DNA from: an uncultured Methanosarcinales archaeon
Lineage (GTDB): Archaea > Halobacteriota > Methanosarcinia > Methanotrichales > Methanotrichaceae
DNA: 64,000 nucleotides
Assembly: GCA_963843555.1 (NCBI GenBank)
Contig: CAWJKV010000014.1
Location: forward strand, 19,758-83,757
Direction: 5' to 3'
Shown: in pieces, positions 29,213 to 48,627 of the stretch
Numbering within the stretch: position 1 is the stretch's first letter
Layout: each line of letters begins with the position of its first letter
Translations under genes and position numbers: made by a program
Notes under the pieces: model-generated
Seen by the model: only the letters and a program-made list of their open reading frames with translations
What the model was told of the DNA's origin: nothing
The model's database searches: none

Positions 29213-30316
29213 ATGAGTTTATTGAAATCAAAGCTGATGCTGATTTGCATAATCTTCGGGATCCTATTGGCGGTCATAGCCCTTACACAGAACGCATATG
29301 CAGGAGCGGAATGTGCATCCTTGGGCGGTGGTTGCGACGACGGCGGCGACTGGAACCCCATGTCCAAGCTGGACGAGATTGGAAAGCCAACCACCAACAG
29401 TCAGGAGCAGACTGCGGCCAAGTGGCCGGAGAAGTCGAGGCAGATGAGATGGAACATGAATGCTTCCACCCAGGAGGATGAAAAGAACACGGCTTCGGAG
29501 ACTCCTGAGAAGGCTGAAGCGCCTGCTCAGAAGGCCATACCTGTAAAGGTTGCAGAGGATCCTGCAAGGATAGTACGCAGCCCTGAGGCAAAAACGATTC
29601 TCGCTCCACTGGACACGGTCACGGATGGTGATATTCTGTTGGACGTGAGCGAAAACTCCAGCACGCATATTGCTGGGTCAGTGGTCATACCTTACATGGA
29701 GTTTGACGTGCAAGCTGGAGTTTTGAAACCCGCGCCTGAAATCTCCAAGATTCTGGGAGACGCCGGAATCTCTCGTGATGATTCCGTCGTAATCTACGGA
29801 GAATGCCTGCCCTGCGGAGGAGGTCCGTCTGTAGCGACTTACATCTACTGGATGATGAAGAGTCTGGGTCATGAGACGGTGAAGGTTTTAGACGGGACGG
29901 CCGAAGACTGGGAGGCAATGGGACGGGACACCACGAAAGACGCCCAGATACTACCCAGCAAAATCTACAATCCCGTAGAAACAGCAAATTACACTGCAAC
30001 CTATGAGTTCGTAAAGAGCGGCCAGGCGCAGATCGTGGACGCCAGGACTTTGCAGGAGTTTGGGTCCGGAAGCATACCGGGATCGATCAGCATACCCTAT
30101 ACCAGCGTGCTGAATGGGAAAAAGATCAAAGGCGAGGACCAGCTGAATAAGGTTTTTATGATTCTGGACAAAGACCAGCCGGTAGTTGTCTTCACCAACA
30201 CGGGTATGAAAGCCTCTGTGGTCTGGTTCGCCCTGGAGATGATGGGTTATGATGCCAGGCTCTACAATTACCAGGATTGGACGGTAAATCAGCCTTCTAA
30301 AGGCTATTTGGGATAG
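29213..30316 (+). CDS. Exported tandem-rhodanese (TST-fold) protein, CLPC type
   Basis: Signal peptide; GISRDDSVVIYGECLPCGGG; IVDART; catalytic loop VVVFTNTGMKAS (Cys replaced by Thr). Confidence 0.85.
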   Translation: MSLLKSKLMLICIIFGILLAVIALTQNAYAGAECASLGGGCDDGGDWNPMSKLDEIGKPTTNSQEQTAAKWPEKSRQMRWNMNASTQEDEKNTASETPEKAEAPAQKAIPVKVAEDPARIVRSPEAKTILAPLDTVTDGDILLDVSENSSTHIAGSVVIPYMEFDVQAGVLKPAPEISKILGDAGISRDDSVVIYGECLPCGGGPSVATYIYWMMKSLGHETVKVLDGTAEDWEAMGRDTTKDAQILPSKIYNPVETANYTATYEFVKSGQAQIVDARTLQEFGSGSIPGSISIPYTSVLNGKKIKGEDQLNKVFMILDKDQPVVVFTNTGMKASVVWFALEMMGYDARLYNYQDWTVNQPSKGYLG

Positions 30317-30328
30317 TGTGGTGAAAGA

Positions 30329-31885
30329 ATGATATTAATCAAATCAAATTCGTGTAGAGCGGAACCAGCGGAACGCAAGGGCTTCTCTGCAATAGCTAGT
30401 ACGGTGCTCATTTACGGGGTCATTTCCATCCTTATGCATGGCCTGGTCTTGAGTGCGCCTGTCTTGGCAGGCACGGAAACGGGCGAGTTCTGCCCCACCT
30501 GCCCTGACTGGAGCGACATGGATGGCTGGCTGGCGAAGAAGGCGGCATATGATCAAGAACAACAGAACGTTAAGCTCAATGTCCAGCAGATCCTACCTGA
30601 GACTCAGAATGCAGATCCGGCTCCCGTTCAGAATACCAATGCATCCGTCCAGAGAGACTATTCTCCAGCTCGGACATCCAGGTTTGCCGAGGCGCTCGTA
30701 TCTCCGACAGAGGTCTCGCCTGAAGACGTTGTGCTGGACATCAGCCCCAGCGCTACAAAATACATAGACGGTGCTGTGAATGTCAACTACGAGGGCTTTA
30801 TGGGCGAAGGCGGTCAGCTCAAGCCCATCTCAGAAATTGCCTCGTTGCTTGGCGATGCAGGCATATCCCGCAACGACTCTCTGGTGATTGCAGGCGAGTG
30901 TCTTCCCTGTGGTGGCGGTCCATCCCCGGCAGTCTTCACCTATTGGCTGCTGAAGTACTTGGGGCATGAAAAAGTAAGAGTTCTGGACGGCAGCATCGAG
31001 GACTGGACGGCGGCCGGGCTAAATACCAGCAATAAGTCTGCCACAAGGCCGAAGACGAACTACACTCTCCTGCTTATGCCGGAGCTTCTTGCTACCTTTG
31101 ACTATGTCGTTAACGGCGGGGCCCAAATCGTGGACGCCAGGCCTGCCGTAGACTTCGGCATGGGTTCTATTCCCGGAGCCGTAAACATTCCCTATGAGAA
31201 TGTGATCGAGAATGAGAGAATAAAGCCCGAAGAGGATCTGCAGAGGGCTTTCATAGAGCTGGAGAAGGACCGGCCTGTCGTGGTTTATACCAATGTAGGC
31301 GTTGAGGCCTCACTGGTATGGTTTGCTTTGACCCTATCTGGCTACGATGCCAGGCTATACTCCTGGCGTGACTGGACTGAAAATCTGCCCAAGTTCGGAT
31401 TCGAGCTGGAGAATGTTGAGGCCCAGCCCAACCCAGTTCAGTCCGGCTCGACTACGACTATAACGGCATCTTTCCAGGAGTCGCAGACTAATGCTACAGA
31501 GAATTCATCGCAAAACGGCGAGACCAAGCTCACGATTAAGGGATGCTCTACCTGCGGATTTGAGGGTTTCGCTCTCGGCACCTCAGGCGCCTCCGGGGCC
31601 TCCGGGAATAATTCTGGGATAGTCCAACTTGGTTCATCCGGCAAGACATCGCAGGCAGGCGGGGTGCAGGCTGTCGATAGCGCCTTGCGCTGCACCGCCA
31701 TAATTAACAGCCCTGACGGCACCGAGGTAGCAAGGACGAGCCTGCTGCGCACCTCCGCATACCAATATATGGGGATCTGGAATGCCAATGTGGCACCCGG
31801 GATTTACAAAGTGAGTATATCGGCCACAGCCTCTGGCAGCGCAAAGACCTTTGCAGATGTCCTGGAGATAGAGGTAACCCTTTAG
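30329..31885 (+). CDS. Exported tandem-rhodanese protein with CPTC, CLPC, CSTC and a C-terminal beta (Ig-like) domain
   Basis: Hydrophobic N-terminus; IAGECLPCGGG; VVVYTNVGVEAS; C-terminal YxGxWNANVAPGIY. Confidence 0.82.
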   Translation: MILIKSNSCRAEPAERKGFSAIASTVLIYGVISILMHGLVLSAPVLAGTETGEFCPTCPDWSDMDGWLAKKAAYDQEQQNVKLNVQQILPETQNADPAPVQNTNASVQRDYSPARTSRFAEALVSPTEVSPEDVVLDISPSATKYIDGAVNVNYEGFMGEGGQLKPISEIASLLGDAGISRNDSLVIAGECLPCGGGPSPAVFTYWLLKYLGHEKVRVLDGSIEDWTAAGLNTSNKSATRPKTNYTLLLMPELLATFDYVVNGGAQIVDARPAVDFGMGSIPGAVNIPYENVIENERIKPEEDLQRAFIELEKDRPVVVYTNVGVEASLVWFALTLSGYDARLYSWRDWTENLPKFGFELENVEAQPNPVQSGSTTTITASFQESQTNATENSSQNGETKLTIKGCSTCGFEGFALGTSGASGASGNNSGIVQLGSSGKTSQAGGVQAVDSALRCTAIINSPDGTEVARTSLLRTSAYQYMGIWNANVAPGIYKVSISATASGSAKTFADVLEIEVTL

Positions 31886-32182
31886 GGCCAGGATGGCTGG
31901 CCGGTCTTTATTTATTGCATCAAAGCTTGCCTTTCTCCACCGTACAGACCACCGCTCCCTAGCCGCAGTTTTTCTGAATCCTTCATCTCTGATTATTTAA
32001 GATTCTCTGAAAATCAGAAAATCTCTTTTATTCCTACTCCATGCCATCGACCCAGCCAAAGCAATATTTCATATCGATAAAAATTGATGCGTAATTCTCA
32101 AAACAAATACGATTTTGGATTCTAAAATCAATTTAATGCGACGCACATCAAATCCTGGCAGAATTCAGATAAAGCGCAAGCA

Positions 32183-32206
32183 TTATATATCGGCAAAGAT
32201 TGATAT
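32183..32206 (+). promoter_or_regulatory. TATA box overlapped by ATATC-N10-GATAT operator
   Basis: TTATATAT 32183-32190; ATATC ggcaaagatt GATAT 32187-32206; degenerate copy at 32071-32090. Confidence 0.7.
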
Positions 32207-32220
32207 GATCTGCGATTATC

Positions 32221-32514
32221 ATGGGACTGAAAGATAAGATCTTCGGAGATAAGGCCAGCAGCGGTTGCTGCTGCGGCACGCGCATCGTCGGCCTGAGGCA
32301 GATCAACGTCGGGGGACGCAACACGGGAATTATGGGAATGGACGAGACCTTCCAGGAATACTTTAAAAAGGGAAAGAAGCCCGAGGATTCTACCGGAGAT
32401 GAGATGGTCGAGGATTTAAAGAAGCTCAATTTCATCGCCGAGGATGCTGAGAAGATGTATAAAGAGGCTTTTTTGAGAGAGTATCAAAGGTTCTACGAAT
32501 CCAGGAAGAAATGA
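32221..32514 (+). CDS. Small conserved protein with N-terminal CCC motif
   Basis: SSGCCCGTR; I.VGG..TGI.G.D; first gene after the promoter. Confidence 0.75.
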   Translation: MGLKDKIFGDKASSGCCCGTRIVGLRQINVGGRNTGIMGMDETFQEYFKKGKKPEDSTGDEMVEDLKKLNFIAEDAEKMYKEAFLREYQRFYESRKK

Positions 32515-32959
32515 ACTCCGCAGAAGGGAATGGTGACATCAATAGTGACCGGCAAAGAAGGTTTGCGAGGATTCAAAGATCGATGAGGATGCAATATGCA
32601 GCCTGGCGAGGCTCATCGGAGACACGGACAAAGCCCGAGCCAGGACCAGGAAGCTCGCCTCATTGATGAAGAATATCGAGATGGAAGGCCCGGAAGGAGA
32701 GGTCGATGTCTTCAAGGCGGCTGCCGACCCCTGCCGGCTCAGGATTCTTAAGCTTCTCAAAGAAGGAGAACTCTGTGTCTGCGAGATCATGACCGCCCTT
32801 AAAAAACCTCAATCCTCCACCTCCCATCATTTGTCCATTTTGAGAGAGGCGGGACTTGTCAAAGAGCGCAGAGACGGCAAATGGTCCTATTATCGACTTG
32901 CGGATGGAGCGGTCAATGAGATGGTCAAACAGGCCGGAGCACTAAAGAAAAAACAATAA
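32511..32959 (+). CDS. arsR: ArsR/SmtB repressor, 5' end frameshifted (ORF track starts at 32663)
   Basis: ADPCRL, ELCVCEI, PQSSTSHHL; upstream in-frame EDAICSLARLIGDTDKA matches paralog 46125 but has no in-frame start; ATG 32511 overlaps the previous stop. Confidence 0.8.
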
Positions 32960-32980
32960 AAATTTTTGAAGGATATAAAA

Positions 32981-33880
32981 ATGTTTTGGGAAGACTTAGC
33001 GGTAGCGGCGAATTTCTTCGTGGAAATCGCTGTAGAATTGATCGTTTTATTCATAGGCATAACCTTTCTCGTGGGGCTAATACAGGAGTACGTACCGGAT
33101 GAGACCATAAAGAAGGTCCTTGGTGGGCAGCACAAAATTCTGGGCAGCATCCTTGGGGCTGGATTCGGCGCTCTTACGCCATTTTGTTCCTGCTCGACCA
33201 TACCTCTCCTCCTGGGAATGCTCAACGCCGGCGTGCCCTTTGCATCTGCAATGTCATTCTTGTTCGCTTCTCCGCTGCTGAACCCGGTGATAATATCATT
33301 GTTCGTCATTTTGATGGGATGGAAGATAACTGCGCTCTACTTTGCCGTCACCTTTGTGGGCGCAATTGCCATCGGTCTCTTGCTCGATAGCCTCGGCTTT
33401 GCCAGTCAGGTGAAATCCGTGGCCGCAGTACGAAGCTGCTGTGACTGCCAGCAGGCAGCGGATGCGAAATCGAGGATACAACGCTCTGCTGCAAATGCAT
33501 TCAGTTTATTCCGCCAACTCGTGCCCTATCTCCTGTTAGGCGCAGGCATTGGTGCATTCATTCATGGATTCGTTCCTACGGAGATCATCACCCGCTTCGC
33601 AGGGCCGGACAATCCCTTGGCCGTTCCTGTGGCCGCTCTCATAGGCATTCCCATCTACATCCGGGCCGAGACCATGATCCCCATCGGCCTGGTCCTCACG
33701 GAGAAAGGCATGAGCGTGGGGGCCGTCCTGGCACTGGTTATCGGCGGAGCGGGGGCGAGCATCCCTGAGCTGACGCTTCTATCGGCCATATTCGAGAAGA
33801 AGCTGCTGGCAGCCTTCGTGCTTACTATCTTCAGCATAGCGGTGGCTGCGGGATATCTGGCCAATTTGCTGGTAGCTTAG
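32981..33880 (+). CDS. arsP: ArsP/DUF318 permease (second subfamily)
   Basis: TPFCSCSTIP, FLFASPLLNP, GIPIYIRAETMIPI, GAGASIPE; central SCCDC. Confidence 0.87.
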   Translation: MFWEDLAVAANFFVEIAVELIVLFIGITFLVGLIQEYVPDETIKKVLGGQHKILGSILGAGFGALTPFCSCSTIPLLLGMLNAGVPFASAMSFLFASPLLNPVIISLFVILMGWKITALYFAVTFVGAIAIGLLLDSLGFASQVKSVAAVRSCCDCQQAADAKSRIQRSAANAFSLFRQLVPYLLLGAGIGAFIHGFVPTEIITRFAGPDNPLAVPVAALIGIPIYIRAETMIPIGLVLTEKGMSVGAVLALVIGGAGASIPELTLLSAIFEKKLLAAFVLTIFSIAVAAGYLANLLVA

Positions 33881-33974
33881 GTAAGAAATGCGACGATATT
33901 TCGCCAATGATGCCTGCTGGTGTCAGAAGGCGAAATAACTTCCTTTTATGAGTGAATATTTTCCGATGCTTCGA

Positions 33975-34064
33975 GCCATAACATTCATATATGCACATTT
34001 GCACATGTATAAGAAAAAGGCCAAAAGCTAAATGGCAATGGCAGATGCATGATGAAATTCGGGC
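33975..34064 (+). repeat. ~90-bp duplicated promoter/operator segment, copy 1
   Basis: Aligns with 35305-35397; contains TCATATATG-N10-CATGTATAA at 33985-34012. Confidence 0.8.
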
Positions 34065-34191
34065 TCATTTGGGGAAACATGGACGGGTCTCTAAGCAAAT
34101 CGTCGCAGAGGAGTTTCCTTGATGATCGCGCCAATAATTATACGGCATGTTATGCCCCAACTCATTGGAATAGTTAAAAGAGGTCTTAATC

Positions 34192-35289
34192 GTGAACTCA
34201 AATAAAAAACTCTCATTCCTGGATACATATCTGACCCTTTGGATATTTTTAGCCATGGCTCTTGGCATTGCATTAGGGTATTTCTTTCCAGCCGTTCCGA
34301 AGGCGATCACAGGGCTTTCCATTGGCACTACATCAATACCTATTGCCATTGGATTGATCCTTATGATGTACCCTCCATTAGCGAAAGTCAGATATGAAGA
34401 ACTCGGAAGAGTCTTCAAGGATACAAAGGTTCTGGGTCTTTCGCTTGTGCAAAACTGGATTGTCGGTCCCGTGCTCATGTTTGTCTTGGCGGTGATCTTC
34501 CTCCAAGACTATCCCCATTACATGTATGGTCTGATACTGGTTGGGCTGGCCAGGTGCATCGCCATGGTGATAGTCTGGAACGATCTGGCGGGCGGAGACT
34601 GTGAGTACTGTGCTTCCATCGTGGGTTTGAACTCTGTCTTCCAGGTTTTCTTCTACTCCATATATGCCTATATTTTCCTAACCGTACTGCCTTCAGCGTT
34701 GGGCATCGCTGAAGGAGTCGCAGTCAATGTGACCATGGGCGAGATCGCAAAGAGCGTTTTCATCTATCTGGGCATACCATTCATTGCTGGTATTATCACC
34801 AGATACGTGTTGATCAGATCCAGAGGAAAGAGCTGGTACGAGAACAAATTCATCCCTCGAATATCACCTATTACCCTCATTGCTCTGCTTTTCACCATCG
34901 TGGTGATGTTCTCGCTAAAAGGGGAGTATATTGTAGGGGTCCCACTGGACGTAGTGAGAATCGCCATACCACTGACCATATACTTCGCATTGATGTTTTT
35001 CATAAGCTTTTACATGGCATACAAATCGGGAATCGATTACCAAAGAAGTACCAGTCTTTCATTCACCGCTGCCTCCAACAATTTTGAGCTGGCCATTGCT
35101 GTGGCAATAGGTGTCTTTGGCATAAGTTCCGGCGAAGCATTCGCAACAGTTATCGGACCTCTCGTGGAGGTGCCAGTAATGATCTTACTGGTCAGAGTAG
35201 CCCTATATTTGAAGGAGCGGTGGTATAAAAACAGAGAAGATGCGAGCTGCAATCTTGCTGCAAAATGCAAATCAATGGAGGTTAATTAA
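34192..35289 (+). CDS. acr3: Acr3 arsenite efflux transporter
   Basis: [51 protein letters not shown]. Confidence 0.95.
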
Positions 35290-35304
35290 TCCTAAGTCGA
35301 CTCC

Positions 35305-35397
35305 GGCCACAACATTCATATATGCGCATTCTCACATATATGATGAAGAGACCAAAAGCTCAACTGCAATCGCCGAATGCGTGATAAAATTCGTGCC
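35305..35397 (+). repeat. ~90-bp duplicated promoter/operator segment, copy 2
   Basis: Perfect arms TCATATATG-N10-CATATATGA at 35316-35343. Confidence 0.8.
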
Positions 35398-35445
35398 CTT
35401 GCGAAAACACTGCCTGTAGCTCCAATCAAATTGGAAAGAGGAGCA

Positions 35446-35712: not shown

Positions 35713-35733
35713 CAGTAAGGAGGAGATAACACC

Positions 35734-36369: not shown

Positions 36370-36387
36370 TAATTAGGAGGGATCTGA

Positions 36388-37104
36388 TTGGACTGGCTTC
36401 TATATCCTGCTGAATGGGCCAAGACCGCGCTAGAACAGGCAGGAATGGGCCCGATGGCACTGCCTTTGGCCTTTCTTTTGGGCCTGGCCAGCGCAGTGGC
36501 AAGCACCTGTTGCACCTTACCGGTGTTTGGCGCCATCGTCGGATACGCCGGAATGCAAGAGGCAAACGATCGGCGCTCCAATCTGCTTGGTGCTTTCTTC
36601 TTCATGCTCGGCTCGATCATAGCTCTGCTGATTTTCGGGAGTGTCGCCGGGCTGATCGGTCAGGTCGCCCAGAGCGTCCTTGGAAATTACTGGAAGGTTT
36701 TCGCGGGAGTTGTTGCCATCATCGTCGGGCTCGGTGCCCTGAATCTCCTTCCTCTCAAGATCCCAGGGATAAAGAACAGGGCAATAGAAACTCGAAAACG
36801 AGGATTTCTGGGAGCAGCGGCAGTCGGACTCATCATAGGCGGAGCGGTGAGCGTATGCTCTTTGGGCTGCAATCCCGGGATTTTCATCATCCTGGGTGTC
36901 GCTGTACTGCAGGGATATACGCTCTGGATGTTCGGCATTCTGGGTGCTTACGCTGTCGGCTTCAGCCTGCCTTTAGCTGCACTCATGCTGGGTGTAACTC
37001 TTGGCAAATCAGCTATAGGATTTAAAAAAGCGGACAGTGCGATCCGACTTGTGGCAGGAGTCGTTTTGATCACGGTAGGCTTCTATTTCCTCAGCACGTT
37101 TTGA
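36388..37104 (+). CDS. CcdA/DsbD-like transmembrane electron transporter
   Basis: 6 TM segments; STCCTLP and CSLGCNP at the two redox-Cys positions; YAVGFSLPL. Confidence 0.8.
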   Translation: MDWLLYPAEWAKTALEQAGMGPMALPLAFLLGLASAVASTCCTLPVFGAIVGYAGMQEANDRRSNLLGAFFFMLGSIIALLIFGSVAGLIGQVAQSVLGNYWKVFAGVVAIIVGLGALNLLPLKIPGIKNRAIETRKRGFLGAAAVGLIIGGAVSVCSLGCNPGIFIILGVAVLQGYTLWMFGILGAYAVGFSLPLAALMLGVTLGKSAIGFKKADSAIRLVAGVVLITVGFYFLSTF

Positions 37105-37123
37105 ATAAGGAAGTGAAAATTAC

Positions 37124-37880: not shown

Positions 37881-37904
37881 ACTACAAGGAAGTGAAAAAA
37901 TTTC

Positions 37905-38411
37905 ATGAAAGCAGAGGAAACTGGAAAGAAGAAGGGACTGCTCGGCTCCATCCTGAAAACTATAACCGGAGCCGGCAGTTGTTGCGCACCTGGAAACGAT
38001 TGTTGCAGTCCGAAAGACGCAAATGCAACCGTTGAAACCGAGTATCATGGAGAGAGGGAAATATTGATAAAAATCTATGATCCGCCAATGTGCTGCTCCA
38101 GCGGCGTCTGCGGGCCAAATGTGAACAGCGCGCTGGTGGAATTTTCCGGCGCATTGAAATCGCTTGCTGAGCAGGGAATTGGCTTTGAACGCTGGAATCT
38201 ATCCCAGCAACCGCAGGCATTTGCAGAAAATTTGCAGGTGAAGGTGCTACTGACCAAACTTGGCAAGGATGCACTGCCTTTTATCTTCGTTAACGACGAA
38301 CTCAAGATAACTGGGCGTTATCCAAAGTCTGAAGAGCTCTTTGCCTTGTTGGGAATTGACGATAAGACTGTGAGATCCGAGGTTTGCTGTGCAGAAGGAT
38401 GCTGCAAATGA
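37905..38411 (+). CDS. arsD: ArsD arsenic metallochaperone with extra Cys pairs
   Basis: IYDPPMCCSSGVCGP, RWNLSQQPQAF, GRYP; N-terminal SCC..DCC, C-terminal VCCAEGCCK. Confidence 0.9.
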   Translation: MKAEETGKKKGLLGSILKTITGAGSCCAPGNDCCSPKDANATVETEYHGEREILIKIYDPPMCCSSGVCGPNVNSALVEFSGALKSLAEQGIGFERWNLSQQPQAFAENLQVKVLLTKLGKDALPFIFVNDELKITGRYPKSEELFALLGIDDKTVRSEVCCAEGCCK

Positions 38412-40165
38412 AAGAGCTAATTGCAGGCGTCCCCCGATTTCTATTTTTCACCGGAAAGGGTGGTGTCGGGAAAACATCCATGTCCTGTGTCGTCTCCTTC
38501 GCGCTGGCCGATCAAGGAAAACGGGTTTTGTTGATCAGCACCGACCCGGCATCAAACCTGGACGAGGTGCTGGAAACGCCCCTCACCGGTCGGCCCACAC
38601 CGATCAATGGCCAGCCGGGCCTGTGGGCTATGAATATCGATCCGGTTCAGGCTGCCGCCGAATATCGGGAAAGGATTGTAGGACCTTACCGGGGGGTATT
38701 GCCGGAGGATGCAGTGCAATCCATCGAAGAACAACTATCAGGAGCCTGCACGGTTGAGATCGCTGCCTTCAATGAATTCACCCGGTTCATCGGCGATGAC
38801 AAGGCCGCCAGGGACTACGATCATGTTGTCCTCGATACAGCGCCCACGGGCCACACATTAAGACTGCTCAGCCTGCCTGCTGCATGGAACGATTTCGTGA
38901 TCGCTAATACCAGCGGCAGCTCCTGCCTCGGTCCTCTTTCCGGCCTCAAGGATCAACGTCTCATTTATGAGGCAGCGGTGAAGTCGCTCACAAATTATCA
39001 AAAGACGCTTCTTATTCTGGTCGCCAGAGCCGAAGAGATCACACTCAGAGAAGCCGCCCGTGCCAGTGCGGAGCTCTATCTAATAGGAATGAAGAATCAG
39101 CACCTGATTATCAACGGTCTTTTTCAAACCAAATCATCAGACCCTGTTGCCGAAGCATTTTCCCGCAAAGCCGAAGAGGCCATGGCCTGCATGCCGGAGC
39201 GGTTGGCACGGCTGCCGCGTACTGTATTCGGCAACAATCCGCAGGGCTTGACAGGTATCAAAGCCATTCGAGATGCCGTTCAAGGCAAACCTGTCATCTG
39301 CGCCCCGGATGTTGTGGAGAAACTGCGAACAGGCAGAAGTCATCTCCTGTCCCAGACGGGACGATGGAAAGAACTGCTGGATAGCCTGGAGGAGCGCGGG
39401 ACAGGGCTCATTATGACCATGGGCAAAGGCGGCGTCGGGAAGACCTCGATAGCTGTTGCCATAGCCAGAGAACTGGCCAATCGCGGGCATCCGGTCCATC
39501 TGTCCACCACCGATCCCGCCGCTCACATTGAGGATATGCTGGATCGACCGCTCCCCAATCTTCAGGTCAGTCGAATTGACCCCAAAGAAGAAAACCGCAA
39601 GTATGTCAAGAACATTCTTGAAGGGAAGAAAGGATCGTTATCGGACGAAGATATGGCTTTGCTGGAGGAAGAACTTCGCTCTCCTTGTATCGAAGAGATC
39701 GCCGTTTTTCGAGCATTTGCCCATGCTGTAGCCCTGGGACAGGATAACTTTGTAGTTCTGGATACCGCTCCGACCGGCCACACCTTGCTCCTGCTGGACG
39801 CCACTCAATCCTATCACCGCGAAGTGGCAAAGAATTCTGATGGTGTTGCCGATGATGTGTTAGAACTTCTGCCGCGTTTACGTGACCCGGAATTTACCAA
39901 AATTCTTCTGGTGACGCTGCCTGAGGCGACGCCTGTTCACGAGGCAGCGCGCCTGCAGGATGATCTTCGACGGGCGCAAATTGAGCCCTTCGCCTGGATC
40001 ATCAACCAGAGTTTCGCCTTATCCGGAACCACCGACACGCTTCTTGCAGCTCGCGGCGTTAATGAATTGAAATACATTGATGAAGTAGCTTCGAAGCTCG
40101 CCAAAAACGTGGTCATTTTATCATGGCGACCCGACGAAATCAAAGGTGTTGAACCTGGGGATTGA
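38408..40165 (+). CDS. arsA: ArsA arsenite-activated ATPase
   Basis: Two GKGGVGKT and two DTAPTGH; metalloid Cys in ACTVEI, SCLGP, SPCIEE; ATGA overlap with arsD. Confidence 0.95.
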   Translation: MKELIAGVPRFLFFTGKGGVGKTSMSCVVSFALADQGKRVLLISTDPASNLDEVLETPLTGRPTPINGQPGLWAMNIDPVQAAAEYRERIVGPYRGVLPEDAVQSIEEQLSGACTVEIAAFNEFTRFIGDDKAARDYDHVVLDTAPTGHTLRLLSLPAAWNDFVIANTSGSSCLGPLSGLKDQRLIYEAAVKSLTNYQKTLLILVARAEEITLREAARASAELYLIGMKNQHLIINGLFQTKSSDPVAEAFSRKAEEAMACMPERLARLPRTVFGNNPQGLTGIKAIRDAVQGKPVICAPDVVEKLRTGRSHLLSQTGRWKELLDSLEERGTGLIMTMGKGGVGKTSIAVAIARELANRGHPVHLSTTDPAAHIEDMLDRPLPNLQVSRIDPKEENRKYVKNILEGKKGSLSDEDMALLEEELRSPCIEEIAVFRAFAHAVALGQDNFVVLDTAPTGHTLLLLDATQSYHREVAKNSDGVADDVLELLPRLRDPEFTKILLVTLPEATPVHEAARLQDDLRRAQIEPFAWIINQSFALSGTTDTLLAARGVNELKYIDEVASKLAKNVVILSWRPDEIKGVEPGD

Positions 40166-40265
40166 AAGTTTCATGATAAAATTGCCCTTGAAATGAAATG
40201 CCGATTCAATGGAGTTGTCAAGAAGGTAAGGAAGTGCTTGGATCCAAGAATCCAGGAGGAATGTA

Positions 40266-41168
40266 ATGAGTTTACCAAAATCAAAGCTGGTGCTGATTTC
40301 CATAATCTGCGCGGCCTTATTAGCGGCCATGGCCCTGTTTTACTTTACGGATGAAGGAAGCAAGGCGTCAGAGAACATTAAGGTTGTTGAAGATTCCAAG
40401 ACGGCTCAGAATGCCGTTCCTGTAGACCAGGCAAGCGTGGTGAAGAGCGACGGGGCTAAACCGATTCTTGTGCCATTGGACAAGGTCAAAGATGCGGATA
40501 TTCTCCTGGACGTGAGCGAGGATTCCAAAACGCATATCCCAGGCTCTGTGGTCATTCCCTACACGGAATTCGACATACGAGCGGGTGTTGTAAAGCCCGT
40601 TTCTGAAATCGCCAGGATTCTCGGAGACGCCGGAATCTCTCGTGAGGATTCAGTCTTGATCTACGGCGAATGCCTGCCCTGCGGCGGCGGTCCGTCCGTA
40701 GCGACTTACGTCTATTGGATTATGAAGAGTCTGGGTCATGAGAAGGTTTTGGTTCTCAATGGAACGGTTGAAGATTGGGAGGCAATGGGACGCGATAGTA
40801 CGAAAGACGCCCGAAAACTCCCTGGCAAAGTCTACACTCCTGCAGAAACGGCAAATTACACTGCAACCTATCAGTTCGTAAAAAGCGACCAGGCGCAGAT
40901 TGTTGACGCCAGGACCTTGCAGGAGTTTATGGCCCAAACCATACCGGGATCGATCAGCATACCCTATGAAAGCGTGCTGGACGGGAAAAAGATCAAAAGC
41001 ATGGACGAGTTGAATAAGGTTTTCGCGGCGTTGGACAAAGATAAGCCGGTGGCGGTTTTCACTTACACGGGTATGAAGGCCTCTGTGGTTTGGTTTGCCC
41101 TGAAGATGATGGGATATGATGCCAGGCTCTACAGCTACAAGGATTGGATGGAAAATGAACAATCTTAA
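40266..41168 (+). CDS. Membrane-anchored tandem-rhodanese protein, CLPC type (close paralog of 29213)
   Basis: N-terminal hydrophobic helix; IYGECLPCGGG; VAVFTYTGMKAS. Confidence 0.85.
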   Translation: MSLPKSKLVLISIICAALLAAMALFYFTDEGSKASENIKVVEDSKTAQNAVPVDQASVVKSDGAKPILVPLDKVKDADILLDVSEDSKTHIPGSVVIPYTEFDIRAGVVKPVSEIARILGDAGISREDSVLIYGECLPCGGGPSVATYVYWIMKSLGHEKVLVLNGTVEDWEAMGRDSTKDARKLPGKVYTPAETANYTATYQFVKSDQAQIVDARTLQEFMAQTIPGSISIPYESVLDGKKIKSMDELNKVFAALDKDKPVAVFTYTGMKASVVWFALKMMGYDARLYSYKDWMENEQS

Positions 41169-41192
41169 AAGATATTACATCTCGATCCTGCT

Positions 41193-41555
41193 CTATTCAG
41201 ATCTAAATACGGAAGCTGTATTCTGAGCTCCACAAGTTTTCTTTTTAGCCAGATCTTCCATAGACGACAGTTCGGTGCACAAGGACTCACAAAGACTTTG
41301 GAATAGGCTCGCTTCTACTTTATTTCCGGGATCACTTAGGGTATAGTATATCCATAAACCCTCCCGCCTGGACTTCAAAAGGCCTGCACGACGCAGGATA
41401 GCAAGATGACGGGAAGCCTTTGTCTGCGAGATGCCCAGAGCGGCCTCGATTTGACAGACGCAAAACTCCCTCTTGTAAAGCAAGACTATGAGCCTCAGTC
41501 GCGTTTCATCGGAGAGTGCCTTAAATAACTCAACGTATTGTTCCGTTTGGTTCAT
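41193..41555 (-). CDS. arsR: ArsR/SmtB repressor
   Basis: FKALSDETRLRL, EFCVCQI, SQTKASRHL. Confidence 0.9.
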   Translation of the reverse strand: MNQTEQYVELFKALSDETRLRLIVLLYKREFCVCQIEAALGISQTKASRHLAILRRAGLLKSRREGLWIYYTLSDPGNKVEASLFQSLCESLCTELSSMEDLAKKKTCGAQNTASVFRSE

Positions 41556-41557
41556 CT

Positions 41558-41585
41558 ATTTACATGCAAATATGCGCATATATGA
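41558..41585 (-). promoter_or_regulatory. Operator TCATATATG-N10-CATGTA directly upstream of arsR (autoregulation; probably leaderless)
   Basis: Same motif as 33985 and 35316; ends 2 bp before the ATG. Confidence 0.75.
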
Positions 41586-41635
41586 AGCTTTTGGCGTTTT
41601 GAAGACGCATTCTCTGTTGGATTCCAGACTCATCT

Positions 41636-42084
41636 TTATTTCCTAAACGTATGTGATATCCAATCCTTTATCTCATCCCTCACTTGCCGGAAGACCTCAA
41701 GCTGCTCCTCCTCAGAGCCTGTGGCCAGGGCAGGATCCTCGAAGCTTCAGTGAATGACTTCTCTTGCTTTAGGAAATTTGTAGGAAGCTCAAACTCTGTG
41801 CTGCAGATCGGGCAGGCCTGTTTGGCCCGGTTGCAGACAGTGACTGCCAGTTCAAATACTGTATCCTGAAATTCCATTGAAGACTTGGATTGCTGACCAG
41901 AGATATCGATGCCGATTTCCAACATGACCTGCACGGCGCGAGGATCGACCGATGCGGCCTCGACTCCGGCGCTGTAAGCCTGGTATCGATCGCCGTACAT
42001 GGCCCGCAAGAGGCCTTCGGCCATCTGGGAGCGGGCGGAGTTGTTAGTGCAGAGAACGAGAACCTTCTTCTTATCCTGGTGCAT
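41636..42084 (-). pseudogene. arsC: Thioredoxin-dependent arsenate reductase (LMWP fold) with frameshift and in-frame TGA
   Basis: LCTNNSARSQMAEG, TVC..A..ACP; after a shift near 41775 reads PKAREVIH*SFEDPA...VFRQVRDEI (TGA 41747-41749 at the conserved Trp). Confidence 0.85.
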
Positions 42085-42217
42085 CGCAAGGGATGTCATC
42101 CATGTCTCAATGCTCATCAAAATAGATCAGCATTTTGCCCGTTCTGTTGCAGGAGGATTTTTGCAGTATTCTGGAGGCAGGTTACATTGAAATCCTTCCT
42201 TGCATAGACTATTGCAG

Positions 42218-42514
42218 ATGACCTGTGACGAGCAGGAGCTTTATGATATCTTGCAAGAGATCGAGGCGCTCTGCACAATGCACGAGCGAATTACGCAGTC
42301 CTCCAAGTGCCGGGAGTTCAACCACCGCGCTGCCCTGCTGCTGCAAAGACTGGAAGACTCTGAATGCGATCGTCTGGCGGATAGGACCATGGACCTTCTG
42401 GCATCCTGCAATCCCAAAGACCTCTCTCAATGTGACAGCATCCAGCGTGCCAGGGATGTTCTGCAGAGGCTGAGGGAGATGGCCAGAGAGAACTTGAAAG
42501 AAGAAAAAGATTGA
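42218..42514 (+). CDS. Hypothetical helical protein with 6 Cys
   Basis: ORF 42200..42514, ATG 42218; divergent from arsC. Confidence 0.55.
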   Translation: MTCDEQELYDILQEIEALCTMHERITQSSKCREFNHRAALLLQRLEDSECDRLADRTMDLLASCNPKDLSQCDSIQRARDVLQRLREMARENLKEEKD

Positions 42515-42582
42515 AGAAACCAAATATCGTCTCTCGGCCCACTTGTCATTCAGGCGTTCTCTGCGTTTCCTGTTGTTATAGT

Positions 42583-43294
42583 TCAGTTTACCTTTGAGAC
42601 GAATGGATAATGATCGATTGAAGATCCATCATCTATCTTCCTGGGCAGATCGCAGAATCCATCCTTATCGGTGTCATTGCAGCCTTCCTTTGGCTCGTCG
42701 TAATCGCCATAATGGTTTCCTTTCATCTGTTTTCCAGTAAATAATTCCAAAAGCCCTTGTATTCCATCTGAGTTCTGGCTGCTGCTATTCCACGAATTGC
42801 CACCCTGATCTCTGGCTGCGATTTCATTCCCCCGCAGATCATTAGATACAAAGATGTTATTGACAGATCCCATCATGACGTATATGCCGTACTTATTCTT
42901 GTAGAAGACATTATCAGAGATCGTGTTGTTATTGGATTCAATCCGTATTCCCGCATTTCTGGAGCAAGCGCATCCGGTAGAGCCGGTCAGATTAAACCCC
43001 TTTACCGTAGATCCATTGGCTATCAGGGCGATTGCATTTCCAAATCCTTCTGCATCTACAACTGGCAAGCCATCGCCTGTGTCAAGGCCTATTAAGCTTA
43101 CAGCTTTGACAACTTTGAGCCTTTCCCGATATGTTCCGCTATGAAACTTCAATGACATCTCCATTACTTGAGTTATCGATGGCCTTCTGGATCTGTGGGT
43201 AGTCTTCGTCTAATGGGCCTACAGTAATTTTTACCGCTTGGGCCAGGTCAATGATCAATATTATTGTTAATATAATTAATAGACTTTTTCGCAT
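42583..43294 (-). CDS. Exported NosD/CASH beta-helix protein (N-terminal +1 frameshift)
   Basis: MRKSLLIILTIILIIDLAQAVKITVGPLDEDYPQIQKAID from 43294; extra T near 43145; STGCACSRNAGI; GCNDTDKDGFCD. Confidence 0.8.
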
Positions 43295-43438
43295 AAGTAC
43301 TCCTCGCATGATACAAAAAAGGATAAATTTGTTCTATTTGAACTTTTCTATCGTGTGTCAATTGGGTCAATTGCTTTTCCGATATGGGTATAAGCCCGGC
43401 GGGAGGAGTCTTCCTCACCGCGGGACATTTTTTCCACA

Positions 43439-44839
43439 TTACCACATCTTGTACCCCAGGTACCTCACCGCATAGACGAGGCCGATCAAGATCACTGCCA
43501 CTCCGAAGATCTTGGTCACATACTTTCCGGCATAGATGTACTTCTCGCCGATCTGCCCGCCCACAGCCCTGGAGAAGGTGGAAATGGGAATCACAGGCAC
43601 GCCATGGCCCAATCCGAAGACGAAGAGCATCAGGCCTCCCACCAGGGGTGTCACGTCCTGGGAGATGAGCCAGATGAGCACCGGGAAGACCAGGGACACG
43701 GCGCAGGGTGCCCAGCCCAGGGCGAAGAAGACGCCCAGGGTGAAAGCTCCAATGAAGGCCGAATACTCGAAAAGGCCCATGGAGAAGTGAACCAGCCTCT
43801 CCATTATGCCCTTCTTTTGCACCGGCGAGTCATCTTCATCAGCATCGGCTTTGCGGAAGGAGAAGTGCGACCTGACCGGCTCAATGATCTCGCCGATGGG
43901 CTTGATGATATTTATTCCCAGGATGATCATCAAGAGGCCGGCTGCCAGGTCAAAGAAGCGGGCCTGGCGGATGAAGACGCCGATGTCTGAGAGAAAGAGC
44001 CCCAGCACGAAGAAAACCAAGGCCATGCCCAGAGTGAAGGCCACCCCGATCATGAAACCCTCTTTGGAGGCCGTTGCTGACTTCTTGAGGTACTCCTCTT
44101 TCCGGCGAGCAGTCATGACATAGGAGAACATAGCCAGGAGCAGAGCCACGGAGCAGGGCGAGAGGGAAGTTACAATTCCCAGGACGAACATGGTCAGGTA
44201 GTTCACGCCCTGGCTGGATGCGATTCCTTCGAATCCGGAAGCCTCACCGCTCTCCATGCTTTTCAGGTCACTGTAAAGAGAATCAGCGCTCTGGATGCCA
44301 TCGATCTCGCCCTTGCCGAGCTGGTAGACGTGGAAGAGGTCCGCAACGTTTCCTTCTTTATCTATCAGGATCAGCGTAGGGTTGGCAAAGCCGCCCTCCA
44401 GGGTGGAGTAATCGATGTATTTGCTGGTAAGAGGATAGGGCTCAAAGTCCTCAATCCAAGGCCAGGTTACATTGGTGTTCCACCAGAAACTGGCCAGAGT
44501 CCGGCCGTCCTCTGAGTATGGGTTCTTCCGGACGTTGAGGGTTATGATATTAATGCCGGGATCCTTCTGCTTTAAGATGGAAAGCTCCCGGGTCTGGGCG
44601 TTCAGTGCGTTCTCGCACTCCCTGCAGAGGGGATTCTCAATGTTGGTGATGTGCAAAAGGACGACCTCACCCCGGTAGTCGCTCAAGGAGACATTCTTTC
44701 CATCAAGGTCCACTGCCTGAAAATCAGGAGCTTTAGCCTCCTGTGCCAGGCCTGTTGACAAGCTTAAGAAGAGGGAACATAAGATGACAAAAAGGGTGAT
44801 TGGTCCCAAAATCAGGGATCTTTTAATTTTGAAAGACAT
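43439..44839 (-). CDS. Exported redoxin (TlpA/AhpC-TSA-like, CREC) fused to CcdA/DsbD
   Basis: Signal peptide; APDF..VDLDGKNVSLSDYRGEVV; PLCREC; TSLSPCS; GWAPCA; FGLGHGVP. Confidence 0.87.
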   Translation of the reverse strand: MSFKIKRSLILGPITLFVILCSLFLSLSTGLAQEAKAPDFQAVDLDGKNVSLSDYRGEVVLLHITNIENPLCRECENALNAQTRELSILKQKDPGINIITLNVRKNPYSEDGRTLASFWWNTNVTWPWIEDFEPYPLTSKYIDYSTLEGGFANPTLILIDKEGNVADLFHVYQLGKGEIDGIQSADSLYSDLKSMESGEASGFEGIASSQGVNYLTMFVLGIVTSLSPCSVALLLAMFSYVMTARRKEEYLKKSATASKEGFMIGVAFTLGMALVFFVLGLFLSDIGVFIRQARFFDLAAGLLMIILGINIIKPIGEIIEPVRSHFSFRKADADEDDSPVQKKGIMERLVHFSMGLFEYSAFIGAFTLGVFFALGWAPCAVSLVFPVLIWLISQDVTPLVGGLMLFVFGLGHGVPVIPISTFSRAVGGQIGEKYIYAGKYVTKIFGVAVILIGLVYAVRYLGYKMW

Positions 44840-44869
44840 GGCTGTTTATCCTTTTATTCAGGCCAGACT

Positions 44870-45412
44870 TCATTTGTTCCAGTTAGCGGAGTTCTCGTTA
44901 TAGTAGACTAATGCGTCCTCGATATATTTCTTGGTCCAGCTCTCGCCTGTAACCTCATCAGTGCTGTGCCAGACCGGCACGACCTTTCCCTCCGCATTCG
45001 GAGCCAGAGTTACAATAACTGTCAATGGCACATACATGCCGCCGCCGTTGGGATCGTATGCCCGCAGGGCTTCTTCTGATCTGGCATCGCTTCCGTCAGC
45101 AGATAAATTGAAGTAGGTGAATTCATCTCCCATCTCGTCAACTATCTTTGTCAGGGCCTCTGTCTGAGGTGCACAGTAGCTGCAGCCTTTGTGAGCGTAG
45201 ACAACCACAGGCTTGCTTTCTAGAGCGTCCAAAACCCAAGCAGGATGGTTGACCTCACCGCCTTTACCACTGGATTGATCCGGATATGTTGTCCACCAGT
45301 CATTATTTCCCGATCCTACTGAATATTCAGCACCCATGACATTAACGCTGAACGCCAGAATGAAGACCGCAATCAAAGATGCTACGCAAACTGTTTTCTT
45401 GATTATGCCCAT
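44870..45412 (-). CDS. Exported thioredoxin-fold protein (CSYC)
   Basis: Signal peptide; KPVVVYAHKGCSYCAPQ; YVPLTVIV cis-Pro loop. Confidence 0.82.
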   Translation of the reverse strand: MGIIKKTVCVASLIAVFILAFSVNVMGAEYSVGSGNNDWWTTYPDQSSGKGGEVNHPAWVLDALESKPVVVYAHKGCSYCAPQTEALTKIVDEMGDEFTYFNLSADGSDARSEEALRAYDPNGGGMYVPLTVIVTLAPNAEGKVVPVWHSTDEVTGESWTKKYIEDALVYYNENSANWNK

Positions 45413-45587
45413 GATACACTCTCCTTTAGCTCCATTTTTTCATCTTGACGAAATCCTACTATGAGGTCTGAGGCTGCAAATTGTCCTCGATAATAGCTCT
45501 CGCTTCAAGTTTTCAAGTCGCCTTAACTGAGTTCTTTTCAGATCAGATCATCTGAATTGCCCGTTAACAGGGCAAGCCTAGAACGGC

Positions 45588-45607
45588 ATATCGACATTAT
45601 TGGATAT
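45588..45607 (-). promoter_or_regulatory. ATATC-N10-GATAT operator upstream of the trx-ccdA-nosD operon
   Basis: ATATC gacattattg GATAT. Confidence 0.65.
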
Positions 45608-45811
45608 AAGTCTTTCGACTTTATGATCTATATAGTCTTACATAGGAAAAATTTTTGTTAGAATCCCTTTCATCTAACAGCATTTCGGCGAACATACATA
45701 TTTTCAATTGTTAATTTCGGCCATCTTGTTACCTAATTATGTGGAAAATGTTTAATATATTTAATTAAAGACAGATGTCGTAATTGGATTTAACTGTATG
45801 ACGGGAAAATC

Positions 45812-45835
45812 TTATATATCGAAATAACTGGATAT
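45812..45835 (+). promoter_or_regulatory. TATA box overlapped by ATATC-N10-GATAT operator
   Basis: TTATATAT 45812-45819; ATATC gaaataactg GATAT 45816-45835; same geometry as 32183. Confidence 0.7.
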
Positions 45836-45946
45836 GGATAGCCGGATTAACCTGCGGTATGGACGGACCGGTATACGCTAAATCAGAAGAAATACTGTAT
45901 ACAGCCAGCAGTCAACAGAGAAGGCACAAGAGGGTGAAATGCCAAA

Positions 45947-46099
45947 ATGAGCACGGTGAAATGCGAAATATGCAATAAAGAAGCGGAATCCCTATTCATC
46001 GTAAGTCACAAAAAGAGGGGTAGAATAAGAATATGCTGCGACTGTCTGAAGCAAGAGGGGCCAAAGCTTCTAAATCAAAAAAGCTGCAGTTGCTGTTGA
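45947..46099 (+). CDS. Unannotated 50-aa Cys-rich protein (zinc-ribbon/metallothionein-like)
   Basis: MSTVKCEICNKEAESLFIVSHKKRGRIRICCDCLKQEGPKLLNQKSCSCC*; GGGTGA RBS; below the ORF-track length cutoff. Confidence 0.75.
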   Translation: MSTVKCEICNKEAESLFIVSHKKRGRIRICCDCLKQEGPKLLNQKSCSCC

Positions 46100-46124
46100 A
46101 AGTTGCTGCTAAAGAGAGGAGTCC

Positions 46125-46517
46125 ATGACATGCGTTACGGAAGAAGCTGTTAACAGGATGACACGGCTGATCGGCGATGCCGATAAAGCCGAATGCAAGG
46201 TCGACAAGATCCGTTCCATAGTGAACAGCATAGACGAGCTGGAGATCGAGGAGGAGGCTGAGATATTTCAGGCTATGGCCGATCCCTGCCGACTCAAGAT
46301 CCTCATGCTCCTGAGAGAAGGAGAGTTATGCGTCTGCGAGATCATGATCGGTCTCGACAGACCCCAATCCAGCACATCTCATCACCTTTCCATCCTCAAG
46401 GATGCAGGGCTCATCAAAGAGCGCAAGGATGGGAGATGGTCCAGATACCGGCTGTCCGAGGGCGCTGTTATTGAGATGCTCAATATGGTAAAGCTGATGA
46501 AAGAAGCTAAAATCTGA
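46125..46517 (+). CDS. arsR: ArsR/SmtB repressor (paralog of 32511)
   Basis: ADPCRLKIL, ELCVCEI, PQSSTSHHL. Confidence 0.9.
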   Translation: MTCVTEEAVNRMTRLIGDADKAECKVDKIRSIVNSIDELEIEEEAEIFQAMADPCRLKILMLLREGELCVCEIMIGLDRPQSSTSHHLSILKDAGLIKERKDGRWSRYRLSEGAVIEMLNMVKLMKEAKI

Positions 46518-46533
46518 GAGAGGGCAAAAACAA

Positions 46534-47631
46534 ATGACCAAATTCGATACTATTCACAATGATAACGCCAGCTCAACTCTTGACCGAAAGAGATCAGGCT
46601 CAAGAGGGTTCTATGTTCTGGGAATTCTGATAATTTCCTTGATGGCTTTTGCGCCCGTAGTTGACGCGGGCTGCAGTTGCGGCGGAGGCACCTGGGATCC
46701 TAGCGGTTTCCTCAACTCTGAACCTGGAACCGGCCAGCCCGTCCAGCCAGGCAGCGCCCAAAACAACGCTGCTGGATATTCCGGTAACAGCACGCAGAAT
46801 TCCGGTATAAACACAGAGAAGCCGTTGGATAGGGCGGCCTCTTTTCCTAATGGTGGGATCCTTAAGTCCATGAAGAGCGTTTCCAGCTCAGATGTGGTAG
46901 TGGACGTATCCAACGGCGACAGCTACGCGAAGTCTCATATCGAGAATGCCATTCACATTCAAACCAGAGACTTCTTAGATGGCGCTGGCAACCTAAAAAC
47001 AGATGAGGAACTAGCCTCGATCTTGGGCGATAAAGGCATCTCCAGAGATGATTCAGTAGTCCTTTACGGGAATAAAGAGAGCTCTGGGGAAGCCGAATTT
47101 GCCTTCCTGGTGCTACAACACTTGGGACAAAAGGATGTCAGACTCCTGGATGGAAGCCTGGCAGACTGGAAAGCTGCAGGCTTGCCTGAGGCGGCTTTGG
47201 AGAATATAAAGCCTAGCGTTGTGTACAACCCCGAAGTCAACCCCAAGGTTATAGCCGAATTCGAATACGTGAAGTCCAAACAGGCCCAGATCGTGGATGC
47301 CCGGCCCTTTGTGGAGTTTGGCAAAGGCCGCATACCAGGCTCTGTCGCTCTGGATCCAGCCAATATAATTAAAGGAGATCGTATCAAGAATGGAGACGAA
47401 CTGGGTATGGTATTCGGCAGGCTGAGCAAAGACCAGCCGATCGTAGTTTATTCCAGCGATTACAGCCGCTCATCTCTGGTCTGGTATGCTCTGCAGCTCA
47501 TGGGATATGAGGCCAGCATCTACACCTGGGAGGATTGGAAGGCGAACGAGGCAACGGGGGAGCAGGCCGCTACGACTCCGGCTGGAGGAGGCACTGCCAG
47601 CACGAAATACACAAAGCTGGGCAATACGTGA
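46534..47631 (+). CDS. Exported tandem-rhodanese protein lacking both the catalytic Cys and CLPC
   Basis: Signal peptide followed by GCSCGGGTWDP; VVLYGNKESSG; IVVYSSDYSRSS. Confidence 0.82.
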   Translation: MTKFDTIHNDNASSTLDRKRSGSRGFYVLGILIISLMAFAPVVDAGCSCGGGTWDPSGFLNSEPGTGQPVQPGSAQNNAAGYSGNSTQNSGINTEKPLDRAASFPNGGILKSMKSVSSSDVVVDVSNGDSYAKSHIENAIHIQTRDFLDGAGNLKTDEELASILGDKGISRDDSVVLYGNKESSGEAEFAFLVLQHLGQKDVRLLDGSLADWKAAGLPEAALENIKPSVVYNPEVNPKVIAEFEYVKSKQAQIVDARPFVEFGKGRIPGSVALDPANIIKGDRIKNGDELGMVFGRLSKDQPIVVYSSDYSRSSLVWYALQLMGYEASIYTWEDWKANEATGEQAATTPAGGGTASTKYTKLGNT

Positions 47632-48615: not shown

Positions 48616-48627
48616 AGGAGGAACACC

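Follow-up and report, generated by a model that had tools for sequence, protein, structure and literature searches.

Pseudo-rhodaneses with added cysteine pairs in an arsenic-resistance cluster of a Methanotrichaceae archaeon, putative exported dithiol proteins

The closest described relatives of the proteins considered here are the two-domain TST/MST sulfurtransferases (CysA2/CysA3, FrST, bovine rhodanese, and SseA). Our proteins are encoded in a 64,000-nucleotide stretch of DNA from an uncultured archaeon of the Methanotrichaceae (assembly GCA_963843555.1, contig CAWJKV010000014.1, positions 19,758 to 83,757), hereafter the window, by four intact open reading frames (ORFs) on the forward strand: R1 (29213-30316; 367 amino acids, aa), R2 (30329-31885; 518 aa), R3 (40266-41168; 300 aa; directly 3' of arsA), and R4 (46534-47631; 365 aa; 16 bp 3' of an arsR). 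The initial annotation of this DNA had placed four tandem-rhodanese ORFs here, and each indeed contains two Rhodanese (PF00581) stretches (E 4e-19 to 6e-28 by domain scan). They resemble TST/MST enzymes in having two rhodanese domains of the same fold (Z 25-27), a conserved active-site D-x-R and Glu, and, in most members of the family, a basic residue at position +5 of the C-domain loop. They differ in having Thr/Ser for the catalytic Cys, no covering loop, a CxxC insert, a hydrophobic N-terminus, and a Cys tail, and they reach 52-70 bits against the nearest NCBIfam model (PRK11493), whose sulfurtransferase cut-off is 250 bits. These pseudo-rhodaneses are a new variant within the rhodanese superfamily, and no description of the family was found in the open-licence literature (subscription papers lay outside the search), where it surfaces only in table rows, in a single enrichment row, and as a quantitative PCR target.

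Exported sulfurtransferases of ANME-1 (Methanophagales) and of an Archaeoglobaceae metagenome-assembled genome share with the family a hydrophobic N-terminus, a Cys-rich tail, two Cys in the N-domain loop, a short covering loop, and the layout of R2, including a C-terminal domain with CxxC; the Archaeoglobaceae locus also has a NosD-like neighbour, as at the core-type loci described below. Unlike the family, these forms retain the catalytic Cys within Y-C-x-S-G, and neither ars nor ccdA genes were seen beside them; they too went undescribed in the open-licence literature searched. Arsenate reductases of the Acr2p/Cdc25 type belong to the same fold superfamily, and the four window genes stand in an arsenic context, but the H-C-X5-R active loop that is a feature of the Acr2/Cdc25 type is missing from the window proteins, which have two domains and are likely exported. 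Their N-domain loop, Y-G-E-C-L-P-C-G-G-G-P-S, has no Arg, and their C-domain loops begin with Thr or Ser. As neither loop contains Cys-X5-Arg, the earlier suggestion of an arsenate or thioarsenate reductase of this kind is not supported. Proteins of the DsbC/DsbG/ResA type and the CcdA-thioredoxin module of ars operons offer a likeness of arrangement, a CxxC protein, here likely exported, encoded beside CcdA and thioredoxin, but the window family has a rhodanese rather than a thioredoxin fold, and its dithiol lies in a loop or in the tail. ExtH and TsoB likewise tie rhodanese domains to oxyanion or DsbD-like modules, but R1-R4 score 16-23 bits against their NCBIfam cut-offs (200 and 805), and no selenocysteine was seen in the four ORFs. 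None of the rhodanese selenoproteins in the lists drawn on from PMC13188914 matches the family.

Cysteine pairs and the altered active site

The position of the catalytic Cys in the C-domain loop is taken by Thr or Ser in all four proteins. As first annotated, the loops read FTNTGMKAS in R1 (T-N-T-G-M-K from the catalytic position), YTNVGVEAS in R2 (T-N-V-G-V-E), FTYTGMKAS in R3 (T-Y-T-G-M-K), and YSSDYSRSS in R4 (S-S-D-Y-S-R), and the N-domain of the first three bears GECLPCGGG. R1 consists of a hydrophobic N-terminus, a tail with Cys34 and Cys41, a linker, and the tandem rhodanese with the loop C198-L-P-C201. R2 joins its hydrophobic N-terminus to a CPTC tail (C55, C58), the tandem rhodanese with CLPC, and a C-terminal extra domain with a third CxxC (C406, C409), for which an Atlas search gave no usable match. 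R3 is a short form with an N-terminal hydrophobic segment and CLPC and without a Cys tail. R4 has a hydrophobic N-terminus and the tail C47-S-C49-GGG-T-W and lacks the loop CxxC, its mature cysteines being those of the N-terminal CxC. In R1, R2, and R4 the Cys pair lies just C-terminal to the hydrophobic segment and is followed by a conserved Trp. The hydrophobic segments, correctly noted in the initial annotation, fall within residues 1-50 (17-residue Kyte-Doolittle mean, maximum 2.1-3.3) and suggest that the proteins are exported. An A-x-A-like site was seen by eye at the end of the segment in R1, R2, and R4 and not in R3, which may therefore stay anchored; the first Cys of R4 is possibly lipidated. 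The earlier view of R4 as a non-catalytic partner needs qualifying, as the protein is not simply cysteine-free and has a conserved N-terminal CxC and a conserved operon of its own.

We surveyed 143 members at 106 loci in 54 genomes and 11 genera, picked by similarity to the window proteins and thus a subset of all matches, dominated by genus g1 and including kin that are not independent; one ordinary sulfurtransferase was omitted. The C-x-x-G-x-R loop occurs in none of them (0/143), in agreement with the claim that these are not classical sulfurtransferases. The Cys column is Thr/Ser in 130/143 members, and a Cys stands there in a single member (L206), with the rest of the motif absent. K/R is found at +5 in 91/143 and is replaced by Glu in the R2 clade. 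The anion cradle persists, with the D-A-R arginine in 142/143 members and Glu/Asp four residues on in 132/143. In the N-domain, the equivalent of the catalytic Cys is Gly in 113/143 members, with the two Cys at +2 and +5 from this position; by alignment, CLPC is an insert of 5 residues relative to mycobacterial CysA. Read in this way, the CxxC is an addition by insertion and was not swapped in at the catalytic position. G-x-x-C-x-x-C is present in 118/120 homologues of R3 among the matches listed, so the loop motif is not a chance feature. The loop CxxC is present in 84/143 members and absent from 59/143, of which 57 have an upstream Cys pair plus W/Y and the other two are cut ORFs. No intact member thus lacks a Cys pair, whether placed in the loop or in the N-terminal tail. 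The initial annotation was therefore right that the catalytic Cys is lost and a CLPC gained in the N-domain, although the gain is an insert and the other Cys pairs had been missed.

A check by AlphaFold of where CLPC lies relative to the cradle had been proposed, and it was answered in part. The AlphaFold2 model of the R3 core is confident (predicted local distance difference test, pLDDT, 92.9) and superposes on CysA2 with Z 27.1 and a root-mean-square deviation of 2.4 over 227 residues; in it, the CxxC (core residues 70-73) sits in a loop ahead of helix 78-89. The placing at the cleft comes from alignment. The CxxC loop aligns with Trp102 of FrST (8k55; numbering offset of 3 residues set from Arg70, Trp211, and Cys247), a residue listed among those lining the active site around the catalytic Cys (PMC10962793), and the dithiol is therefore likely at the rim of the cleft of the lost Cys. 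The long loop ahead of the second 'IPG' (C-domain) in mycobacterial TST is, again by alignment, absent from the window proteins, which would leave the cleft open. The loop CxxC would thus face an open interdomain cleft with a persisting, Thr/Ser-lined anion cradle.

The same Cys-pair tail, without a rhodanese domain, was also seen in small exported-looking proteins at C5:191143-191784, C15:51629-52138 (which resembles the C-terminal domain of R2), and C18:99610-100122 of the same genome, and at L054:4190-4879. The tail was rejected as a mark of exported proteins in general (20/340 crudely called exported ORFs vs 292/4980 background windows).

Range and gene neighbourhoods of the family

With the R1 core as query (E 1e-12), matches were obtained in 105/105 genomes of the window's family (Methanotrichaceae, named from protein names) vs 0/146 other genomes of the class, and R4 likewise matched 105/105. 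Each genome of the family has 1 to 15 matches, and the proteins are not confined to the window's arsenic island. The 'family of four' of the initial annotation is accordingly four within the window, with further copies on contigs C2, C3, C5, and C6 of the same genome. The cassette occurs again at C2:189000-203200 (R1 90%, R4 82%, arsP 96%, ccdA 94%); there R2 and arsP are broken by frameshifts, and the repeat may reflect duplication or bin contamination. Named homologues are Methanothrix 'rhodanese-like' or 'sulfurtransferase' proteins, and databases call them 'sulfurtransferase' or sseA despite the missing catalytic residue; Methanothrix-type archaea are major acetate-consuming methane producers. 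A profile search of 401 genomes of the phylum matched 13/13 of the own family and 8/54 of family f17 (E 1e-48 to 1e-59). The next matches were tandem sulfurtransferase-like proteins near E 1e-30, with a loop CxxC in none at the 9 loci read, and the other methanogen families sampled gave no match at E 1e-25.

Loop CxxC and catalytic Cys are both kept in three (P0281, P0287, and P0289) of the best 150 50%-identity representatives; their cluster names are Methanophagales/ANME-1, and the named loci add the Archaeoglobaceae genome mentioned above. In another ANME-1 form, the loop Cys are spaced as C-X7-C. In the simplest history, an exported enzyme would have acquired the dithiol while still active, and Methanotrichaceae would later have lost the catalytic Cys; because the tree from which the clades were taken (FastTree, quick) is midpoint-rooted, this order of gain before loss is suggested rather than read from it. 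At three Methanophagales loci (L099, L102, and L104), the exported sulfurtransferase, its catalytic Cys intact, is encoded three genes 5' of mcrB-G-A and is followed by a U32-family gene and a methyltransferase, and in L104 a PGF-CTERM rhodanese adjoins it, an arrangement of possible interest for sulfur exchange by ANME-1.

Neighbouring markers were scored within 5 kb, and some loci end at contig ends. The core type (38 members, 26 loci, 8 genera), defined by an S8-protease neighbour, bears the CxxC and has NosD-like genes near 38, CBM96 near 35, and CcdA near 30 of its members; 0/38 are near acr3, arsA/C/D/M/P, or arsR. In the R4 clade, arsR, ccdA, and the exported thioredoxin are found in 26/26 rows and acr3 in 22/26; 4/4 members of a distant clade from genus g6 have both arsR and acr3. 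The R2 clade is accompanied by DGC (16/17) and an ars gene (15/17), the R1/R3 clade by an ars gene (9/11). A divergent clade adjoins fba, and 12 members are without any marker. Overall, ccdA lies near 86/143 members and near 37/72 of those without a nearby ars gene, against a background of about 3% of the own genome within 5 kb of a ccdA. A strict ars gene was scored near 59/143 members and acr3 near 35 (29 genomes, 6 genera), and an arsR- or acr3-linked R4-like copy was present in all 5 complete or near-complete genomes read. DsrE-like sulfur-relay genes are near 21/143.

The link of the four window genes to arsenic, as proposed, is borne out by orthologues in ArsR/Acr3/ArsP operons of several genera and by the ArsR genes with a C-V-C motif that precede the window's rhodanese genes; arsenic probably induces the window's ArsR-linked copies. 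Mthe_1071 and Mthe_1274 appear in differential tables of PMC10470525, whose Table S3 gives Mthe_0453, probably the divergent member L035 judging from its place two genes before fae-hps, at 2.8-3.8x the median under four conditions.

Possible roles

We suggest, with a probability of roughly 0.45, that the pseudo-rhodaneses are exported dithiol/disulfide-exchange proteins whose redox state is kept by CcdA and an exported thioredoxin, the window copies being an arsenite-responsive arm. Electrons would pass from CcdA through the exported thioredoxin to the pseudo-rhodanese thiols, and the clients may be cysteine-rich envelope proteins. Day-to-day maintenance of the envelope would fall to the core copy. 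The copies under ArsR control would be induced by arsenite, bind the As(III) that Acr3/ArsA exports, and free thiols blocked by it. In favour of this reading are the confident core fold, the Cys pair of every intact member, the placing of the loop at the cleft by alignment, the kept cradle, the ccdA neighbours, the arsR, ccdA, and exported-thioredoxin genes of the R4 clade, and the Methanotrichales-enriched sulfurtransferase, DsbD, and thioredoxin of PMC11576556 described below. Thioredoxin-fold Dsb oxidoreductases are exported and encoded with a DsbD/CcdA partner; for the pseudo-rhodaneses, export is predicted from the hydrophobic N-termini, and the ccdA near 86/143 members encodes a candidate electron donor. 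The CxxC of the exported thioredoxin-like protein (44870) is invariant in 40 aligned sequences. The dithiol role put forward in the initial annotation is plausible. If it is true, a rhodanese fold has been turned into an exported dithiol protein, a new extracellular thiol chemistry for an anaerobic cell, with intermediates persisting in ANME-1, and the proteins would be candidates for what the ars-operon CcdA-thioredoxin module serves, a matter left open in the relevant part of PMC2963123.

Several points weigh against disulfide exchange. Plain structural disulfides are common in exported proteins, and the loop CxxC precedes its helix, unlike the helix-start CxxC of thioredoxin folds. In the full-length (mature) AlphaFold2 model of R1, the tail blocks have pLDDT 42-58, with one helix at 69. 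The ANME-1 and Archaeoglobaceae loci gave no ccdA or exported-thioredoxin match. Because loci were chosen for their similarity to the window proteins and a single genus is over-represented, the survey counts are not independent rates. The CcdA link may partly be a shared address, because CcdA and thioredoxins, to which the portion of PMC2963123 considered assigns no known purpose, also ride in rhodanese-free ars operons. A complex prediction for R4 with the exported thioredoxin scored 0.02 vs a mark of 0.32; it was run without controls and is not used as evidence.

Alternatively, the Cys pairs could be stabilising disulfides or bind Zn or another metal in non-redox surface binders that use the old anion cradle. 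Retention of the cradle residues though the catalytic Cys is lost would fit this, as would the varying spacing of the loop Cys (including the ANME-1 C-X7-C), the recurrence of CxxC-GG-like motifs in flexible tails and the C-terminal domain, and the lack of a loop CxxC in 59/143 members. The strong linkage to CcdA and to a thioredoxin with invariant CxxC speaks against such a site, and order in the R3 core model is lowest at this loop (block pLDDT 73), unlike what a buried staple would show; we consider this explanation unlikely, though it deserves to be kept in view. Distinctly unlikely, in our judgement, is the handling of sulfane sulfur, in which the cradle would bind polysulfide or thiosulfate outside the cell, the dithiol would reduce or carry it, and the ANME-1 CxxC would resolve a catalytic persulfide. 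The sulfurtransferase fold, the catalytic Cys kept with two loop Cys in the ANME-1 and Archaeoglobaceae forms, and the nearby DsrE-like genes are all consistent with it; however, no Methanotrichaceae member has the C-x-x-G-x-R loop, the R2 clade has Glu at the usually basic position, and the DsrE/H genes are of cytoplasmic types and follow the R4/acr3 operon only.

The same low standing is given to the idea that the proteins are dedicated As(III) carriers or sinks whose cysteines serve wholly to bind arsenite. The acr3 linkage across 6 genera, the ars genes near the R2 and R1/R3 clades, and the R4-like copies of all five complete or near-complete genomes argue for it. Nevertheless, arsenic, the metalloid half of the role first annotated, is not supported as the reason for CLPC, because the core CxxC subfamily has no ars gene within 5 kb (38/38), because the ANME-1 dithiol forms have no ars neighbour beyond weak methyltransferase matches, and because the tightest acr3 link belongs to a clade without CLPC, the loop CxxC being present in just 7 of the 35 acr3-linked members. 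The transcription of the divergent member (presumed Mthe_0453) in ordinary cultures also runs counter to a dedicated carrier (PMC10470525). An extracellular arsenate or thioarsenate reductase in the Acr2/Cdc25-fold style appears highly improbable. The ars context and the basic +5 residue with a dithiol nearby, which recalls the three-cysteine cascade of thioredoxin-type ArsC, might hint at one, but the loop nucleophile is Thr or Ser rather than Cys, the N-domain loop has no Arg, cytoplasmic ArsC-type genes are encoded separately, and we see no clear gain in extracellular production of the more toxic As(III).

A further, quite improbable proposal is that the family is a missing factor for the oxygen-free formation and editing of disulfides in the Methanothrix-type amyloid sheath. 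Sulfane sulfur in the rhodanese cleft would oxidise the loop CxxC and leave as sulfide; the resulting disulfide would then pass to cysteine-rich sheath subunits, with proofreading by CcdA-thioredoxin. The parts of the literature drawn on report that sheaths dissolve only with a reducing agent and that accessory factors have been proposed (PMC6242892), and place sheath proteins in all Methanotrichales and some ANME-1, doubt MspA as the main subunit, and mention no sheath assembly factors found (PMC11576556); both call such factors unknown, and the pseudo-rhodaneses are candidates for them. Table S5 of PMC11576556 lists a signal-peptide 'thiosulfate sulfurtransferase', DsbD, and thioredoxin as Methanotrichales-enriched (13/13 vs 0/35), and accession order and gene context suggest that this sulfurtransferase is a member of the family. 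The presence of pseudo-rhodaneses in all 105 genomes of the sheathed family supports the proposal. At L033, a member (ABK14855.1 cluster, Mthe_1071) follows MspA (ABK14853.1) and MspA's neighbour, and the next gene, Mthe_1072 by order, is a listed sheath protein (PMC11576556); the order mspA pair-rhodanese is repeated in L078, making 2 genomes in all. In L077, an ORF resembling an insertion sequence (11150-12014) stands where the rhodanese gene would be, flanked by the mspA pair and the following sheath-like gene.

A general linkage to mspA was rejected, as MspA homologues were found in 3/81 genomes and the second gene in 10/105, with a rhodanese directly behind in 2. Several results speak against the sheath proposal. 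Where sequence beside the mspA-like second gene was available in 6 more genomes, no rhodanese gene lies within 1.5 kb of it. Sheath genes are near just 3/143 members, the other methanogen families sampled lack a match (E 1e-25), and the 77 named loci include no Methanomicrobiales record though Methanospirillum is sheathed. Among 66 ANME-1-family genomes, the rhodanese occurs in 9 (g98 8/8, g70 1/4; outside g98 1/58) and Methanothrix-type subunit homologues in 7, all g98, using as probe the ORF at 24124, which would miss other ANME-1 sheath types. The overlap counts in favour of the proposal, although it comes down in effect to one lineage, a point against it. The probe, a 242-aa ORF of the window with six Cys (24124-24852, reverse strand), has near-identical tandem copies on contig C5 and is 85% identical to a gene in G031 that corresponds by gene order to Mthe_0668, the most transcribed (main) sheath subunit; an Atlas search with the protein gave no usable match.

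The arsenic-resistance cluster and other features of the window

The region around the four genes is an arsenic-resistance cluster, in which Acr3, ArsD, and ArsA score above cut-offs and four ArsR, two ArsP, and one ArsC-like ORF are also present. On the forward strand, an ArsR-family regulator (26528-26890; RCVCE) heads an arsP-trx-DGC-R1-R2 run, with domain matches to an ArsP-family (ArsP_1) permease (26904-27986) and a small thioredoxin-fold protein (28566-28802; Thioredoxin_3, CAKC), followed by a DGC-domain protein (28815-29195) that ends 17 bp 5' of R1. The same arsR-arsP-trx-DGC cassette occurs in a bacterium, and the portion of that report consulted names no rhodanese in it (bioRxiv 2022.10.17.512643). 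Further along the forward strand lie a second arsR (LCVCE) and second arsP (32663-33880; domain matches), the Acr3 arsenite exporter (34192-35289; above the NCBIfam cut-off), a CcdA/ArsG-like membrane protein (36388-37104; a weak ArsG match, below cut-off), and arsD and arsA (37905-40165; both above cut-off), 100 bp 5' of R3. The ArsC-like ORF (41680-42120, reverse strand) matches the N-terminal two thirds of the model only and appears to leave frame near its end.

Two reverse-strand genes precede the R4 unit: one for a protein with a redoxin domain (CREC) plus a DsbD/CcdA membrane domain (43439-44839), in which both Pro-Cys motifs are kept, and one for the exported thioredoxin-like protein (44870-45412; weak thioredoxin matches), divergent from arsR-R4. 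The ArsR of this unit (46125-46517, forward strand; ELCVCE) lies directly 5' of R4. After R4, positions 47818-49330 encode an HTH/TBP-like/Fe-S protein and then a DsrE-like gene, and DsrE/F/H-like genes also follow the HTH/TBP-like/Fe-S gene in related loci such as L050. Away from the cluster, the window contains a 2925-aa ORF (4365-13142, forward strand), which we take to resemble a cyclic beta-1,2-glucan synthase, presumably an unusual gene for an archaeon.

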